The translations under genes and the position numbers were made by a program. DNA of 58,593 bases, filler included, from Dimargaris cristalligena (taxonomy: Eukaryota), in NCBI GenBank assembly GCA_003614675.1. It is 2 parts of 2 records of this genome, joined end to end, with 100 filler letters (N's around TTAATTAATTAA, not from the genome) between each part and the next. Parts side by side here need not be neighbours in the genome. Positions count along the whole stretch, not along the records: positions 29,348 to 58,593 come from ML002487.1; 1 more part is not named here. One strand, written 5' to 3'. The notes beneath the pieces were generated by a model, which saw only the letters and a program-made list of their open reading frames with translations, ran no database searches and was not told where the DNA came from. Below are positions 5,369 to 55,614 of this stretch, piece after piece (positions within the stretch are counted from its first letter, which is position 1; every line of letters begins with the position of its first letter).

Positions 5369-6370
5369 TTAGGCAGCCTTAATACCCAGGATTTCGTTTA
5401 ATGAGGCAGCATCCCGGGTGCTCATTTTCTTGTTCCTTAGGAATTTCGCCCGATGGCTGTTCGATTATGCCCGGAGTTATAGATGGTCCAGATAAAATAA
5501 TATCGAATAGTAACCAATGTATCGGTAAGAGTTAGTTCATGACCAGAAGCATGGGATCACACAGTCATAGTGGTGTAGAGCGCCGGCAACTGGGTCAATT
5601 GAAACCCGAAATAGAGTAAAGGGGGAGGAGGGTAGTTAATGGCCACCACCCTCGGCTTTCATATGGCCCTACGCAATCAACTTACCCACGGAGAACCGTA
5701 CGGGACGTAACACTTGAATCAGTGGGGCCGACGTTAGGTGGAGACTCGGAAGCATCTTCGGACGACGACGGGTCACCCTTACGGGACTTCTTGGCACTTT
5801 TTGAATCTTCATCAGACCGACTGCGTTTCTTGGACTTTTTGTCCTTTTTAGCCTTCTTGGCCTTTTTGGGGTCACTGCTACTCTCTGGGGTAGACGTGGG
5901 CTCGGTTGTTTCGGCGGTCGTAGAATTGCCCGATGGCGGGGGGTTACTACTGTTAAGTCGCTCCAGCAGTGCCCCGAAGCCCGAGGCCTTCTCTATCCAT
6001 TTGTCGGAGGTGTTGACGTCGGCCCCGATACCTAGAGTTGTGGTCCGATGCTTAACCACGATGTGCTTCGTGACTCCGTCCCGGTTTGTGCCGAGACCTT
6101 GGCCATCCGCCCAGCCCATTTTCTCGAGTAACCGGAAGCCGAACCGACCGGTGTCTATAAGAGGGAGTTGGGGATTATACGTGGGTTGTAAAGTAGGGGT
6201 GATTAATGGAGGTAGAAGTCCAGCTGAATGGGGCGGTGGAGTATTCTACCGGGCAGGGGGACTGGTGGTGGAAAGGGGGAGCAACAATGGCCGGACATAC
6301 CTTTACTCCAGGCGTGGTTGTTGGGGTCGACGGCGCGAGCCACCTTCTTCTTTTTTTCGGCGAGCCCCAT
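5369..6370 (-). CDS. PXR1: G-patch ribosome-biogenesis/telomerase-inhibitor protein Pxr1/PinX1 (Gno1), 3 exons, about 208 aa
   Basis: Exons 6370-6301, 6154-5686 and 5456-5369 join in phase across GT..AG introns to give MGLAEKKKKVARAVDPNNHAWSKDTGRFGFRLLEKMGWADGQGLG... (Pxr1 N-terminus plus G-patch), a Lys-rich segment and HRAKFLRNKKMS...NEILGIKAA*. Confidence 0.92.
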
Positions 6371-6726
6371 GGTGCTTAGAAATAAAGGACTGGGGTATAG
6401 GAGATACTTTTAAAGAAGGCAGGCTTCGGCTAATGGCCTATTTACTAGAATGGAGGAGGAATCGGGCGGAGGTAGTTAAAAGAAAACACCCTGTTGGATA
6501 ATGACATGCGACTGAGAGGGGTGGTGAAATGGACAGTGGTTAACCATTCTACTAGACAGCTAGCTCATGTGAAGGACAGCTTGACTAGGAAGCAGCCCAA
6601 GCCAAAAGAGAAAGGAATAAAGAAGAAAAAAAAAAAGACCGAGCTAATAATTGAGCACACCCTAGACAGTCCAAAAGGAGGCCTCATTATGATTGGCGGC
6701 CATAGTAGAGGGAGGGGGGTTATCGA

Positions 6727-29051: not shown

Positions 29052-29247
29052 CCAGGACCACAGCGCTGGGGGTAAGGCCCGAAACGCGGCACTTGATGTC
29101 AAAGAACTTCTCCATGCCGATATCCGCCCCAAATCCGGCCTCGGTAACGACGTAGCCGGGCTGGGCCGTGGGTTCCAGAGGGTCGGTACCCGCGAGTTTC
29201 AGGGCAATAGCGTCGGCGAGAATGGACGAATTACCGTGCGCAATGTT
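29043..29247 (-). other. Inverted internal fragment of the same C1-THF synthase gene (FTHFS domain)
   Basis: The minus strand reads [20 protein letters not shown]...[37 protein letters not shown], a conserved FTHFS segment that normally lies downstream in the same orientation as the gene. Confidence 0.93.
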
Positions 29248-29347
29248 NNNNNNNNNNNNNNNNNNNNNNNNNNNNNNNNNNNNNNNNNNNNTTAATTAAT
29301 TAANNNNNNNNNNNNNNNNNNNNNNNNNNNNNNNNNNNNNNNNNNNN
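29248..29347. other. Artificial contig-joining linker / assembly gap
   Basis: 44 N + TTAATTAATTAA (stops in all six frames) + 44 N, exactly 100 bp. Confidence 0.97.
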
Positions 29348-30465
29348 AGTATTTATATAAGGTGTTGAGTATGGCCAACTTCGAGTTTGCCCTGTATGAG
29401 CCCAAGAGGTGAGTAATGGGATATCAAATGCAAACGATCTCGGGTAAGAGTGCTATACTAGGGTGGGGTTCTACTCAACTGTATATAATAATGGGTTAAA
29501 TGTATATAGGAATATACATAGGATCCTCATTTGGTACTTGAAAAATCAGTCATATCAACCAAGGTTAAAATCATACAGCCATGTTGAACCTAACCTATTC
29601 CAACTGTATCATAACCAGTGTTGTCTCAGATGAAGTAGAGTTTTATTTAAAGTGAATCTAAGGCGGGCGACCTTTTGGTCATAATTGCTATCCACAGGGA
29701 ACATGATAATGGGTACTTTGGTTAAAAACCCTCAAAAGCTACAGATATAGAGGGAAAGGACAGGAGGTAGAATAAAGAACAGACCCTGGAAAGAAACTAG
29801 GCCCTTATGACAACCAACCCACTTAGCTGGACCAGTGTTGTCTCATACAGAAACAACTCCTGCATATATAGATTGTTGCACAGCTATTCAAATGTGATTT
29901 TTGAATTTTGGCATTGGACCTTCTCATTACCCAAATTAATGGTTGAGATGCCAACAATTTATGGTTGATGATTGGGCAAACCAATCTACTATGTCTCCAT
30001 TTCACACCGACTATGGACACCCTGGTATTGGGATTAAAAAGGCCAAAGACAATGGCACCCCCACTGGTTCTGGCAGTTGGCTGAGGTTTCTGAAATATTT
30101 TTCATTAATACATTTTTTTAATGGAAGGTCAGTATTGGTTTTAGAAAAAATAACTACATATATTGTAAACAGTGGCTCCCTCTTATCAACGGTACCAAAA
30201 TAATGTAAATATGTGGGAAAGTAGGCGGAATATATCACCTAACTAGTGCACAATCCCATTATTATTAAATGGATATTTCATTATACAACCCAATTGAACT
30301 ATACCCATATATAAAATTAAAGCGGAACCTCATATACTTACCCCTACAGTGACCTGGTGACCATCCCCCCATTGAGGCCCCAGAATTCATGGCCTCAACC
30401 TGGGACCCCCGAATGTGTGAAGACAGGGGGGATGGGGGGGTGCAAGGCAAAAAAATAATGGTTTA

Positions 30466-30492
30466 GGGGAAGGGAAAGGGAAAGGGAAAGGG
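30466..30492 (+). repeat. (GGGAAA)n tandem repeat, G-quadruplex-capable
   Basis: GGGGAAGGGAAAGGGAAAGGGAAAGGG: five runs of three or more G with 2-3 nt loops. Confidence 0.8.
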
Positions 30493-30528
30493 AGACCACT
30501 TGTCATACTACCCTAATTGTAGTCTTCA

Positions 30529-30812
30529 TCAGCTATTCCAATATACATCTCTCTTTGTGCTACACTCAGCATATTCATGAATTAAAATACTCTCCATCCT
30601 GACATTGGCCAGTATGTATCCAATGAAATGGGTGTCAGTGGAGCTGGTGTATCAAGCTTGCACCGCCCTTGTATCTTGATTAACACCAACCAACTAGCAA
30701 CTCGCACCATCGGTATAACTCAGGTTTAGAATGATCCATTGCTAGTTAACCACTAGCTGGCATCCTGCCTATAGGGCTCCTATATAAAAATAAAACCAAA
30801 GGAGATGGTCAT
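30529..30812 (-). pseudogene. Possible decayed small secreted-protein gene
   Basis: TATAA-like element and C/A-rich leader, then MTISFGFIF, a frameshift, and IGAL*AGCQLVVN*QWIILNLSYTDG... with several stops, inside a CpG-depleted tract. No family recognised. Confidence 0.2.
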
Positions 30813-32843
30813 GCTTGTAGTTGGAAGTAAAGTTGTGGTGGCTGAAATGGATGTTGTGCAGCCTTTATGGGACTTGGTAGGGAGCTTGTTTTTTTTTGTA
30901 AAGTTGGGAGTGGCTGAGAAGGGAGGTGCCCTTATAAGGCAGTCAGCCAAAGCAGAAATGGTCACTTAGGTCGGCAATAGTAATTTATATCAATAAATTA
31001 AAATGGGTCACTAACAAGTTCAAATATGCTAACTGTAAAAATGTGAAAATGGCAATTAATAAAAGGTTGCAGGCTTCTATGCCCGGCCAATCAAAATATA
31101 CTAAAGGAAAGACATTGAGGGACATAAATTAGCTTCTAAAATATGGCCCAGTTTAGAAAGGCAGGTGTAAGGATAGAAAAAATAATGGCAGTAGAAAGAA
31201 TCAAGCATGCTATAGTATTACAGCTGTTAATATTAAAAGTGTGTCAACAATTTTGTAAAGTTGGGAGGCAATCCTATTGTAGGATATGTGTAATAATATA
31301 ACTAGGGGTACAGTGCCACAGAAAATAGAGTGGTTTATTGATGTACTGCTGTTGGACTCCAGTCTAGCACTGTTGGGCTTAGATAGAGGTGAAATTCAAA
31401 CCAGTTGTATAAGGTTCTACATAATATGTGTATGGGTGAATATATATAAGAATAGCTCTTAACCAGTAATATTAGTCTTATTTAATGGATTTTTTATTAT
31501 ACAGTCTGAATGAACTTCTCCTATATACAAGTGAAGAGAACCACCTTCCTTTGTGCATGGGGCTAAAAGCCACGTAGGCTGGCTTCCCACTGGCAAAAGA
31601 CAGTATACTCACTAAATTGGAGTAAATAGTTCCAGGGATGGGTGGAGTAGTTATTTTTAGGCCAACAGAGGGATACATAAGTGGGCATCACGGGATAATA
31701 ATAAAAATTATAAAAAAAATTACCTTTAATTACATTGGGTTATGGCTTGATTTTTCAAATATTATTGCCTTTGGTTATATGACTGGCCCCCTATAAGCTG
31801 CCTGGCCGTACTTGCTTTAGCCATTTACCAATTGAGGGTGTATACTGAAATCCACTGAGGAGGCTCTTATTAGACAGTAAATTCTGTCGGCCTGGGTTTA
31901 TTAGTAGTCAAAAGGAGGGTGTATACGTGCTTATTGGGATACACCAGATGCCCATTGGCTATTTAAATGGCGGGCCATAACCCGGGAGAATATTAATGTG
32001 AAAGGATGCCTCTAAATGTATCACCTATGAGGAGCAGTGGTACCGGAAGTGCCTTCAAATCAATGAAGAAGTCCATTGAAGATGCCTTTTGAGCACCTAC
32101 TAGAAAGGTGGGTAAATGGCACTCATAGCACTGGGCACCATATTATAACCAGGTCTGATTGAGGAGGGACGAGGGCAAGGCGTCAGGTTAAAATAGGACT
32201 ACAAAGAATAGTAGCTCAGTTTCCGACCACAACTGTATATTTTGGAAAATTAGATGGCAGTACTATTAGCATTTCCCCCTCCACCATCACCTCAATTATT
32301 CAAGGGCTGACTTATCCTACCTTAGTTGAATATTCACTTTAATATGGCCCATTCCAAAGGCGGTCTATCGCCAAACTGTTCTAATAGTTAGGGCGGTATA
32401 ATTTTGGCACCATTCTAAAAAAAAAAAGAGCTCAGGTCAGCTACATCTACTTGAAGAGGTGTATTTACAAAATCCTGTATAGAGGCCCGATTATTAATTA
32501 ATATACATAGGGAGTTGGTATAGATGTACTTGATATCCAAGATGCTACGCGTTAAAGTAGCGTGGATAGTTTATAATTCGGTTTATTCGGGTTTAATATA
32601 TAGGCGACTTAAAAATGGCATGTCATCACACCCTATTGAATATACAGGGATTAGCTGTTGAAACGTTACATAAACTAGGCTTGAGTAATAAAGCTATACA
32701 AGGTGTATTTTTTGTTTGAAAAAAAGGAAAGTAAAAGGTACTTATGAATCGCATTGATCGCGGGTAATGAAAATATTCGCAGAGCTATATAAAAATGACA
32801 TTTCGGATGACAATTAATCAGGCCGAATTATAAAGCGATGTTT

Positions 32844-33092
32844 TTACTGGGTGTCTTTGGGCTTGGACGAACCGAATATTTTCTTACCGACTTTATAGGT
32901 GCCGTAAGCCGTAGCAGCAGCAGCAGCAGTCCCAGCAGCGGCCAATACCGCACCTCCGATGGCCAAATTCTTAGCGACGCTGCGCTTAGCCAGCTTGGGA
33001 GTCGAGATAATGGGGTCGGCAGGGTTGGCATGGGCCATGGAGGCAGTGGCGATGGTAGCCAGAATGAGAGCGACGGCAGAGAGGAACTTCAT
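32844..33092 (-). CDS. Small secreted prepro-peptide (82 aa): signal peptide, pro-region, KR (Kex2-type) site and cationic Gly/Ala-rich 45-aa peptide
   Basis: MKFLSAVALILATIATASMAHA | NPADPIISTPKLAKR | SVAKNLAIGGAVLAAAGTAAAAATAYGTYKVGKKIFGSSKPKDTQ*. Start context CACA-ATG, TATATAAA about 200 bp upstream, CT-rich leader and AT-rich 3' flank. Confidence 0.8.
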   Translation of the reverse strand: MKFLSAVALILATIATASMAHANPADPIISTPKLAKRSVAKNLAIGGAVLAAAGTAAAAATAYGTYKVGKKIFGSSKPKDTQ

Positions 33093-33294
33093 TGTGAATC
33101 GAGGTGGTTCGTTTTTGGTTTGTTTGTTTTGCGAAAGAGGTAGAGCAAAAATGGAATGGCGGAGGAATTGGCTAAGAGGCTTACAAATTATAGAGGATGA
33201 TCTGATCGGGGAGAGAGACAGAGAGGGGCGGGAGAGGCTGGAGGATGGTGATTGTAAGGTGATTTTTGAAAAAGATGGGGGCCACCAGGGCGGT

Positions 33295-33306
33295 ATTTAT
33301 ATATAA
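33295..33306 (-). promoter_or_regulatory. Putative TATA box of the prepro-peptide gene
   Basis: Minus strand TTATATATAAAT followed by a pyrimidine-rich leader. Confidence 0.55.
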
Positions 33307-35174
33307 CTGATGTGACCTCCGCCACTCGATTGGGAGTCCCGGGTTACGCGGGTCAACGCACCTCGGACTATGGCCGCACCACAACTCCTCCCTGCTATCC
33401 TCTCCGCTACTAGCTGCGTATTTTTCGATATCCGACAAGCCTTCCTCATTGGTGTGGTTGGGGCTGGCCCAATCACCTAAAAGGCCCGAGGTGACTGTTA
33501 TGGGCCTTTCCCCTTTCCCTATTTTTTGCCAAGACCCATTAGGAATAAAATGGACCCGCTAATTGGGAACACCGCGCCTCGCTAGCTCAAGGCTTTCCCA
33601 TTGCTTGGATTCATCCGCGCATGTTTTGCGCCAATAAGCTACCCGCCGACCACCATTCCCTTTACATTGAGAATTCTTGTTATCGTCCTATAGATGAATA
33701 GTTGAGTAAGAAGTTGGGAAACTATCGAGAGTAAAGTGGAAGGGGGAGGAGGGAGGGGGACATCAAAAATACAGGTGTAGTAGAGTAACCACCGCCTGTA
33801 CTCGACCTGCCTGGCTACGGCCCGGGGTAGTACCAGAACGCCGCCTTCTGCTCGCACCCTACACTTCCACGACGGAAAGGACGGGGAATTAGCAGAGGTA
33901 CCATTTGGACCGGAATTCAACATACCCATCTAGTCGAAGGCAGTGACAAAGAGTGTAGGCGCTCAATGAATATTCATCGATGCCTCTCATATTCACCCCC
34001 CCCCCTTCTCCCACCCTCTCTCGACTTTTCCTTCGTGGTCTACATTTCATTTTGAAGGGCATAGCTAGTAGACAGGGAGAAGGATATCACAGTATGAACT
34101 TATAGACCCCCTACTTCAATCCAGACAATGTATCTCTTGGCACACACCGATTGGTAGTCTCAAAACGACTAAATAATAATGTGCCGTTTTGAAGTGGTCC
34201 ACCCACCCCCTTAAGCTCCTTTTTGCGACCAACTAAATACTTTTCAGCTTTTCCACTGGCCTTCCAGGTCTATGGGGCCTAAAGTAACCTACGAATAGTT
34301 GTTGGTGTAAACCAATTTACTCAATAGGTCTCTGTAAGTCCAAATGGTCAGTCCAAATAGGGAAGATGTGCCCTTATCCCTCCCCCTCCTTGAGTAGCAG
34401 TGGTGGGACATGTATGCCATCTGCTCATATTTCTATCCCCAAAAGGAATACTACTACCTCGTGGACCCACCATTGTCCCCCTCCTACCTGCTTACCAAAA
34501 AATAAGGGCTAGATTCGAGCTGCGTTTTCTAACCATCCGCCGACTATCCTTTTACCGATAATTGTAGTATTCGGGAGAGCTCTACGGCCACTGTACGTAC
34601 AGGCGGGATTCCTGGATGAGAGCTACCAGCCCCAAGCAACGTCGAAAGTAAAGCCCAAGTAAAATGGCTCGGCGCGGCTGTGGTAACACAATAAAGGCCC
34701 ATTAAGGTACACCAATCTTTTAAACAGTTGACTCACCAATCTGTTATAGGGGGGCCACCTCGAAAGAAGACCACACTAAAATGCCACCCTCCTATCTGTA
34801 GGGTAAATTTAGACCTTGGTTGGGCCGTATGTATGTGTCGCATTTTCCGGCGGCCGACATTCAACTACAATGCTCAATCGAATTTAGGGTGTTAAACGGA
34901 AATTATTCGCACTAAATTACGGTGAGCAACGCTGAGAATTACACCAGACTGGCCCTTTAAAAGCAGGCTCGGAGTCCAATGTATCGGTGACCAAATCCTC
35001 TGCAAAAGACCAAGCGGTACAAATCGCAGCCATAAAATAGAAGCTACTGTACTATAGCTGGGGGCTTTATCACCCCACGCAAGCACAAATCCCCTTGTAT
35101 ATTTTTTTAGTGAAATATATCTATCTATACGGTAATTTAAGGGGGGGGTATACTGGAAAGTCAACACCAGTCGC

Positions 35175-53146: not shown

Positions 53147-55614
53147 ATGGTCCCCAAGAGTAAGTCCGTTTCCTCCGTACAGTCCTCGCAACTTCTCTAT
53201 TCCGCCAGAGACACCGGAAGCCCCTCTGTATTTCTGTATATATATATTTGGAGGTGGTTAAAGTAGTCGAGGCCGGTGTCGTCTCCTCTGCAGAGAACGG
53301 GCTGCAGCAGTCCTGTAGCGGTAGTGCCAATATTACCTCGCCTGGTAACTAACCCTTCCCAAATCATCTTCCCCATTATCATCGTCAACCCGGTATCAGA
53401 GCATAAGTCCAAGCGGATGAGTGGCCGCCAAAAGGCCAAAATTGTCAAGCGCTCCAGTGAGAAGCGGCGCAAGGAACGGAAGGCTGCCCGTCTGAATCCA
53501 ACTACCAACAGTAAGTCATTGTCATCCTTCGATTTTCCGGCCTAGGGCCGTACATCATAAATTTCGAAAAATTTCGAGTTAGTATCCATTAGTACCACCC
53601 CCCATCGCATACCATTGCACTCAACAACCCATGCCCATGCTCATAACCCTAACACCCACCCTTCTCCACCTTCCATCTGATACCATTGCCATAAACTTCA
53701 GAGGCCAAGAAGGACCCCGGTATCCCCAACCTGTGGCCCTTCAAGGATAAGTTGATGGGCCAAATTGAGGAGAGCAAGCAACGGGCCGCCGAGGAAAAGC
53801 TGCGCCAAAAGTCCGACCGGTCCAAGATGCACGACAAGAACCGCGGCCTGGGCAACACCAAGTCCCTCAAGGATCTGGCCAGCGACGCCCAGTCCCGGGG
53901 TCAAGTCTACAATGATATCCACGGCGGCAGCTTAGCTAATGACGGCACCCGCGTGCTGGTCGACGGTGCCCTTTCCGGTCGCCGCGATAACTCGATGCGC
54001 GCCTACTACCGCGAGTTCCGTAAGGTCGTCGATCACGCCGACGTGATTCTCGAAGTCCTGGATGCCCGTGACCCCCTGGGTTGCCGTACCAAGTCGATTG
54101 AGCGTCTGATTATGAGCCAGGCTACCAACAAGCGTATCATCCTCGTGCTCAACAAGATCGATCTGGTGCCCCGCGAGAACGTGGAAGCTTGGCTTAAATA
54201 CCTCCGCAACGAGTTCCCCACGATTGCCTTCAAGGCCTCTACCCAGAACCAGCGGACCCGGCTGGGCCAGGCCAACGCGAATACCGCCAACAGCGACCAG
54301 CAGGTCCAAAAGAGCGAATGTCTCGGCGCGGATACCCTGATTCAACTGCTCAAGAACTATTCCCGGAACCTTAACATCAAAACCTCCATCACCGTGGGTG
54401 TCATTGGCTACCCCAATGTCGGCAAGTCCTCGCTGATCAACTCCCTGCGGCGCGCCCGCGTGTGCCAGGTTGGTTCCACCCCCGGTATGACGAAGGTGGC
54501 CCAAGAAATCCACCTGGACAAGAACGTCAAACTGCTCGATTCCCCGGGTATCGTGTTCGCCAAGCCACCCAACGCCGACAGCTCCAACGGCAAGGTGATG
54601 GCCGACGTGATGCTGCGTAACTGCATCAAGGTTGACCTTCTCGAAGACCCCATTGCCCCCGTTGAAGCCATTGTGGCCCGCTGTAACATCCGCCATCTGA
54701 TGGTGCTGTACAACGTCCCCTCTTTCGAAGACACCCGCGGTTTCTTGATCCATCTCGCCCGGCAACGGGGCCGTCTCCGCCACGGTGGACTTCCCAACAT
54801 GGACGCCGCCGCGCGGATCGTGCTCAATGATTGGAATACCGGCGTCATCCAGTTCTATACCTCCCCACCCACCCAGACCACCACCGCCCCCATGCAGGCG
54901 GCCGAAATCGTGCAAGCCTGGGGTAAGGAATTCGATTTGAATATGGTCCAGGGCGAATCCGACCAGACCGCTCTGGATGGGCTCAAGCCCACCAATTCCT
55001 TCGGAAAACAAATCGTCAATGTCATGTTTGATCCTTCGTCCGGTAACGACCAGCTCATGACCGAAGAGGAAATCGCTGCCATTGACGAGGCCAACGGTAT
55101 CGACGTGGACTCGGATGAGTTCGATTCGGATATGGATGGCGATGATATGGACGACTCTGACGATGGTGATGACGATGATGAGGCTCCCGATGCCGTGCCC
55201 ATGGAGGACGACGAGAGCGATGCCGAGAGTGAGGTCGATGCTACCCAACCGGCTCTCCACGTCAGCGCCGAACCCCGCAATACCAAGAAATCCTCTTCTT
55301 CCACCACCACTACTACCAAAACCACTACACGGAAGCAGGTGCTGATGACCCCCGAGGAAGAGCTCATTAACCCCCAGACCCGGGCCGCTCAGCGCAAGCT
55401 GCAAAAGAAGTTGAAGAAGGACCGGCGTCGTAACGAAGCTGCCCAAGTCGAGACCCTGGAGAATGGCGATAATATCATGGTTGAAGAAGAAGGCGGTGCC
55501 GATGATGATTACAACTTTAACTCCTATTTTACCAAACCCCAAACCGGCTCATCTAAAACTTCAGCGGTGGCGGCGGCGATGAACGATGATTCCGACTCCG
55601 AAGAAGATTTGTAA
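53147..55614 (+). CDS. NUG1: Nucleolar circularly permuted GTPase Nug1/Grn1/GNL3-like (60S biogenesis), 3 exons, about 678 aa
   Basis: Exons 53147-53159, 53400-53510 and 53702-55614 give MVPKKHKSKR...KKDPGIPNLWPFK (GN3L_Grn1 N-terminus), VLDARDPLG, NKID (G4), GYPNVGKSS (G1), DSPG (G3) and an acidic C-terminus. Confidence 0.95.

Follow-up and report, generated by a model that had tools for sequence, protein, structure and literature searches.

A family of putative Kex2-processed cationic prepro-peptides, apparently restricted to Dimargaris cristalligena

We analysed a window of 58,593 nt from Dimargaris cristalligena, the window being the whole stretch of DNA with its filler included. Its translation revealed, on the minus strand at 32844..33092, a single-exon coding sequence for a precursor of 82 aa plus a TAA stop (P0002), which bears out the 82-codon gene of a preliminary description that had left the strand unstated. 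All parts of the precursor given here lie on the minus strand. P0002 begins with a hydrophobic N-terminus ending in AHA-NP, in which the signal peptide (aa 1-22, 33027..33092) was called from the hydrophobicity pattern and from family conservation, with cleavage predicted after AHA; this supports the signal of about 22 aa proposed before. A 15-aa pro-piece (aa 23-37, 32982..33026) follows and ends in LAKR, the KR codons (32982-32987) forming a putative Kex2 site. The predicted mature peptide (32847..32981), 45 aa long and without Cys, contains 6 Lys and 1 Asp and has a net charge of +5; the composition claimed for it was confirmed. It contains an uncharged Gly/Ala-rich run of 25 residues (32895..32969), on the summed Hessa scale only a marginal membrane-spanning helix, followed by a basic C-terminal part (32847..32894) that holds five of the six Lys. 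The run of about 25 residues noted earlier is therefore correct for this gene (the string quoted covered 24 of the 25) but is not a constant of the family, since it measures only 8-11 residues in 8 of 17 copies. A filter for signal peptide, KR site and cationic Cys-free product, designed with P0002 already in view, retained P0002 alone among 171 ATG-ORFs of 60-130 aa in the window and 1 of 10,733 ORFs in 100 shuffled windows.

Locally the gene is isolated as described, the nearest ORF of at least 200 aa being 2,086 nt away, but it is not the sole copy in the genome. Its neighbours in the window are housekeeping genes (C1-THF synthase, DUF4112, tubulin) with no evident link to P0002, and the plus-strand ORFs that cross it (P0001 and others) were rejected as an antisense shadow. 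Genome comparison indicated that a 1.3-kb unit (32422..33707) with intact CpG (o/e 0.92) is duplicated at G000:C584 with 67% identity, and that the gene adjoins an AT-rich, CpG-depleted block (o/e 0.24) of dispersed repeats (29350..32400). The strong CpG depletion of this block suggests CpG methylation of repeats in D. cristalligena. Inside the block, at about 29625-29841 and 31380-31527, lie members of two short dispersed repeat families, both present in some 20 or more copies in the rest of the genome. Additionally, the last part of the C1-THF synthase (FTHFS) gene before the gap (29053-29247) is a segment from further downstream in that gene, in inverted orientation, for which a chimera of amplification or assembly is the probable cause, and the 100-nt gap (29248-29347) consists of short TTAATTAA-type filler between N runs. 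The window also holds a 538-codon antisense frame over a GNL3/Grn1 GTPase gene (53932-55548, minus strand) and a 293-codon frame with no Pfam match (5620-6501, plus strand).

The TATA box and good start context noted before were both found: TATAAATAC (33293..33301, minus strand) lies 209 nt before the ATG with no intervening ATG, and the start context is CACA-ATG. A motif count over 17 family copies located TATAAATA(C/T) 147-230 nt upstream in 13 of them, the background being TATAAA in 37 of 240 intergenic 200-nt windows. The likely poly(A) signal AATAAA (32582..32587, minus strand) is 257 nt past the P0002 stop, and the motif occurs 214-317 nt past the stop in 12 of the 17 copies. A public gene model, P0003 (73 aa), is identical to P0002 over its first 68 aa and differs at the end; its intron as reconstructed spans 655 nt (32887-32233), with donor and acceptor both canonical, and takes out the basic tail. 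This splicing is probably a wrong model, because paralogue C584 conserves the tail and the TAA without the P0003 acceptor, because the public model of C584 (P0004) is unspliced, and because AATAAA precedes the acceptor. An exact look-up of 10 family precursors recovered two in the protein collection and left eight absent, and several public family models are mis-spliced, fused or N-extended, in line with the earlier expectation that gene callers could easily miss such genes.

The precursor had been described as an orphan, which is contradicted by at least 21 related loci in the same genome, detected with single-protein queries for which several family members were used in turn. Two of the loci, C1268 and C1174, may be alleles; C172 gave a weak additional match, and the C302 match was dropped, the only long frame of that locus looking like a ribosomal protein. 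Among the 21 loci, visible damage affects four, by a split, a premature stop, a frameshift and a lost start, and a contig end truncates a fifth. The 17 loci analysed comprise 16 that are open from ATG to stop and one, C637, with ATA at the start, whereas C478/C206 (split by an insertion), C1345 (premature TGA), C15 at 48 kb (frameshift) and C786 (a contig-end fragment) were left out. In the family tree the pair C280/C584 and the C1268 group are strongly supported and the deeper forks are weak. The products are of three types: those of the P0002 gene and C584 (38-45 aa); eight short peptides of 32-37 aa starting with G(F/L)xS; and seven long peptides of 55-80 aa with a Pro hinge and 3-5 GxxxG motifs per product. 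All 17 are cationic (+2 to +14), most of them with the charge toward the C-end, and 16 are Cys-free; the highest charge, +14, belongs to C15a, which has a histone-H1-like Lys/Arg-rich tail. Many members also share an N-terminal (G/W/F)FRS motif. Together with the Kex2 release known for fungal alpha-type pheromones (PMC6339444), this motif might point to signalling peptides, pheromone- or quorum-like, for a receptor of the fungus or of a host, which we consider very unlikely given that the products are long (32-80 aa) with large length indels and that the P0002 product has no FRS.

Several loci have unusual structures. At L020:1387-1640 (G000:C15, about 48.0-48.3 kb, minus strand), between members at 44.8 and 50.6 kb with which it makes a three-gene cluster, the family leader (signal, pro-piece, LQKR) precedes an unrelated cationic peptide of 40 aa, rich in Pro and Arg; in this assembly the ATG is out of frame with the remainder. 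An insertion divides another family gene between L010:1-325 and L018:355-630 (G000:C478 and C206); its TGT...ACA termini and 5-bp target duplication are those to be expected for an LTR retrotransposon, and the matching public protein of the other locus-tag series, P0008, reads through the insertion point. In L012:1572-2160 (G000:C1345) and L019:971-1420 (G000:C676) the pro-piece occurs in tandem copies that carry several KR sites, a layout through which a single-peptide precursor could become like a Kex2-processed repeat protein (KEP); C1345 has a TGA within the product, and both of its public models (P0013, P0014) stop there. Repeated KR-bounded units and Ala/Gly-rich products also recall the Rep1 peptides of Ustilago maydis, water repellents released by Kex2 according to PMC7329392, so that surface-active coat or adhesion peptides of aerial hyphae, spores or attachment might be considered. 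This explanation appears quite improbable, since the repeats of C676 and C1345 copy the pro-piece and not the product, and since high positive charge with few bulky hydrophobics suits water repellence poorly.

Comparison of P0002 with its closest paralogue, C584, gave a dN/dS of 0.29 overall (p=0.0005), with 0.10 for the signal, 0.17 for the pro-piece and 0.68 for the product; the two genes differ by a 21-nt in-frame indel and have the TAA at the same place. These values indicate purifying selection on the P0002 gene, with conservation of the leader and faster change in the product. The products of C674, C611 and C292 are likewise under purifying selection (dN/dS 0.22-0.34), and in these three pairs the product is the freest part except for one pro-piece without synonymous change. 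In the C143 group the product is not the freest part, and in the C1268/C766 group its dN/dS of 1.5-1.6 is not significant; no significant dN/dS above 1 was detected in 17 pairs. That P0002 is a non-functional or decaying repeat-borne ORF could be argued from the five broken or contig-cut loci among the 21 and from the CpG-depleted repeat block next to the gene. This seems hardly credible against the dN/dS of 0.29, the frame-keeping indel, the intact TATA box, start and stop, and the lack of CpG loss in the P0002 gene.

Alignment A3 showed the Lys of the KR site to be invariant in all 17 copies. KR itself is present in 12, so paralogues that keep the site, which the preliminary description had proposed to look for, do exist; one copy has RR further along and four have KC or KH. 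A single CpG transition separates each of these four from an Arg CGY codon. In three of the four, CpG erosion affects both the gene (o/e 0.08, 0.18 and 0.53) and a flank. The directional CpG loss is 10:0 in C1363, 9:0 in C637 and 15:4 in C1300, with CpG-poor flanks adjoining; because of this loss throughout and of the CpG-poor flanks, the three look like silenced, decaying copies. C2025 lost KR without general CpG erosion; with a dN/dS of 0.16 against C143 its product seems conserved, and KR may therefore not be required by every copy. The genome encodes a Kex2 orthologue with a P domain over the cut-off, subtilisin catalytic motifs and a C-terminal anchor.

Pfam gave no family for P0002 at E<=0.1, and 13 other members had only sub-threshold matches (Bacteriocin_IIc, DUF456, Gly-zipper), all in the long type. 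The best Bacteriocin_IIc score was 18 bits against a cut-off of 27.1, with none for P0002; these weak matches begin at or near the KR site, are no stronger than those to DUF456 and are probably due to composition. Horizontal transfer from bacteriocins found no support. A profile search of 1.84 billion protein representatives, in which other Dimargaritales are covered as annotated proteins, returned 10 matches, eight of them from D. cristalligena, and nothing real outside this species, for the other two (P0012, P0015) are repetitive proteins matched over short stretches only and were rejected as relatives. The database relatives judged real are all named Dimargaris cristalligena, under two locus-tag series. 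Single-protein, low-sensitivity searches of metagenome contigs and of bacterial genomes detected no close relative. Among six PDB sequence matches at E<=10 there was no AMP, and the best, a tape-measure protein (0.034), was read as Gly/Ala composition. Foldseek with the long-type model gave 0 PDB matches at E<=10, and the ESM Atlas gave no usable match for the mature P0002 peptide and, for P0006, two matches at 0.75, below chance level. We found no description of this peptide family in the literature covered, subscription journals excepted; some members may appear, as small secreted proteins without a name, in the supplements of the secretome paper PMC9391592 and of PMC9866270. The family is real, species-restricted and apparently undescribed. 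With the conserved KR, the Kex2 orthologue and relatives only in D. cristalligena, these results agree with the lineage-specific prepro-peptide that had been claimed.

AlphaFold2 models the P0002 product as one helix (residues 2-37, pLDDT 67) and the long-type product as helix-break-helix at the Pro (pLDDT 66), both models being of moderate confidence. The hydrophobic moment is not above that of shuffled sequences: the best 11-mer of the P0002 product was matched by 66 of 500 shuffles (p about 0.13), no family member had fewer than 29 of 500, and the whole-helix moment of the P0002 product gave p=0.15. For the conserved C-terminal 14-mer, p was below 0.2 in 14 of 17 copies and below 0.05 in only two, the copies being related to one another. 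Hydrophobic residues make up 44% of the P0002 product when Ala is counted, and bulky ones 18%. As the moment does not exceed the shuffles and bulky hydrophobics are few, pore formation by the P0002 product is a guess.

On the Hessa scale, applied as a simple sum without positional terms, the uncharged run of P0002 scored +2.4, within the range of helices in the multi-pass UNC-93-like protein of the window. The 25 uncharged residues with basic ones behind them also fit the positive-inside rule, and an automatic UniRef label of some members reads 'Transmembrane protein'. P0002 might then be a type I membrane micro-protein, with the run stopping transfer in the ER and the basic tail in the cytosol, or, in a variant favoured by the canonical donor and acceptor, the tail-less P0003. 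By the same sum, however, the run of C584, seven residues shorter, scored +5.1, the true single anchor of Kex2 -2.3, and the eight short members, with 8-11 uncharged residues, +8 to +11. These eight paralogues cannot span a membrane, which disfavours an anchored protein as the family function, and the tail-less variant conflicts with the conserved tail and stop of C584, its missing acceptor and the AATAAA before the acceptor. We therefore attach very little probability to a membrane micro-protein.

We give about an even chance to antagonistic peptides that Kex2 releases, that act on membranes and that have converged on the prepro-AMP families of animals. If expressed, the precursor would enter the ER through its signal peptide, Golgi Kex2 would cut at KR and remove the 15-aa pro-piece, and the 45-aa cationic peptide would be secreted and become helical once on membranes. 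There the basic tail would bind anionic lipid, and the Gly/Ala helix would insert and pack with others through small-residue faces. The family is of the fast-turnover (birth-and-death) kind; its leader is shared, and its cationic Gly/Ala-rich products vary, with lengths of 32-80 aa. Likely targets would be dung bacteria, or the fungal host membrane at the penetration site, with killing or modulation as the outcome; the Dimargaritales are described in PMC9866270 as haustorial, biotrophic parasites of other fungi, almost exclusively on dung.

An antagonistic function is favoured by the 21-locus family with purifying selection, a conserved leader and a freer product, by the KR retained in 12 of 17 copies despite widely differing products, by the CpG erosion of most KC/KH copies, by the Kex2 orthologue, and by cationic, mostly Cys-free products with helical models. 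The GxxxG motifs, the Pro hinge and the weak Bacteriocin_IIc matches from KR onward in the long subfamily point the same way, as do the lifestyle and habitat. The charge and the 44% hydrophobic content of the P0002 product can be set beside the +2 to +11 and about 50% given as typical of AMPs in PMC8583803. Against it stand the hydrophobic moment of the P0002 product, bacteriocin matches far below the cut-off and absent for P0002, the lack of a significant dN/dS above 1, the only moderate confidence of the models, the KR-less but uneroded C2025 with its seemingly conserved product, and the small profit that a biotroph draws from host lysis. A non-lytic effector is a rival explanation: a cell-penetrating cationic helix, secreted at the haustorium, would enter the host cell and leave it alive while acting on its mitochondria or nucleic acids. 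The biotrophic haustorial lifestyle (PMC9866270), the modest amphipathicity, the Lys/Arg-rich tails, the histone-H1-like C15a and the species-restricted, repeat-associated, fast-turnover family are consistent with such an effector. It nevertheless appears unlikely, there being no targeting motif common to the subfamilies and products that range from 32 to 80 aa.

Within the antagonistic reading, an independently evolved animal-style arsenal, in which one signal-pro-KR cassette would deliver some 20 cationic peptides against dung bacteria or the fungal host, is a tentative and on balance doubtful proposal. If true, the arsenal would span piscidin-sized helices, bacteriocin-like glycine-zipper hairpins and one Pro/Arg-rich peptide (from the frameshifted locus), and a haustorial mycoparasite would have its first candidate peptide weapons in this family. 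The members are, for the first time, concrete peptides open to synthesis as candidates for the way in which a biotrophic mycoparasite deals with bacteria or with its host; they are possible leads against Mucorales, and they illustrate that such peptide families hide behind wrong gene models.

Melittin- and dermaseptin-type peptides are made as prepro-peptides, and in melittin a hydrophobic stretch precedes a basic tail, as in the P0002 product. Animal linear cationic helical peptides, including cecropin and piscidin, likewise combine a signal, a short pro-piece and a Cys-free cationic helix, and animal prepro-AMP families are likewise multigene, with a conserved leader and a variable product. 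Frog peptides have a strongly acidic pro-piece, whereas that of the P0002 family is neutral or slightly acidic. Compared with animal AMPs, the P0002 product is fungal, less amphipathic and poorer in bulky residues, and a candidate only for membrane activity; Pfam on P0002 and 13 members and the six PDB matches revealed no sequence relation to a named AMP family.

Among linear Kex2-released peptide toxins candidalysin is the main example. This peptide of Candida albicans (Ece1-III) is likewise linear, Cys-free, ribosomal and released by Kex2 at KR, with a hydrophobic N-part and a basic C-end; it comes from a 271-aa precursor of eight pieces, out of which it is excised by cuts at both ends, with trimming by Kex1 (PMC5784256). 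P0002, in contrast, contains a single product, whose C-terminus is free, and belongs to a large gene family. About half of candidalysin is bulky hydrophobic, in a by-eye count from its printed sequence (PMC5784256), against 18% of the P0002 product, which weakens the antagonistic reading. No homology to Ece1/candidalysin was detected, all protein matches being from D. cristalligena or repeat artefacts.

The KEPs, including Ustilago Rep1 (PMC7329392), likewise have a signal and KR-bounded peptides, and two family members have repeated units. P0002, however, has a single core without repeats, C676 and C1345 repeat only the pro-piece, and Table S2 of PMC7329392, with its 11 D. cristalligena KEPs, includes none of the seven known family accessions. 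On this evidence P0002 is not a KEP. The long subfamily shares a GxxxG-rich helix-Pro-helix, with weak Bacteriocin_IIc and Gly-zipper matches, with class II bacteriocins and with the Caulobacter glycine-zipper toxins CdzC/D, which kill by membrane depolarisation (PMC7690452), but it has a Sec signal and KR instead of a GG leader, and the matches are below the cut-off. P0002 thus resembles animal prepro-AMPs and candidalysin on paper and, lacking homology and having a precursor unlike Ece1, is by this comparison a member of neither. Fungal AMPs fall into peptaibols and defensins in a review from 2021 (PMC8583803); a family of about 20 linear cationic prepro-peptides in an early-diverging mycoparasite would, if antimicrobial, form a third fungal class and a case of convergence with animal defence peptides.
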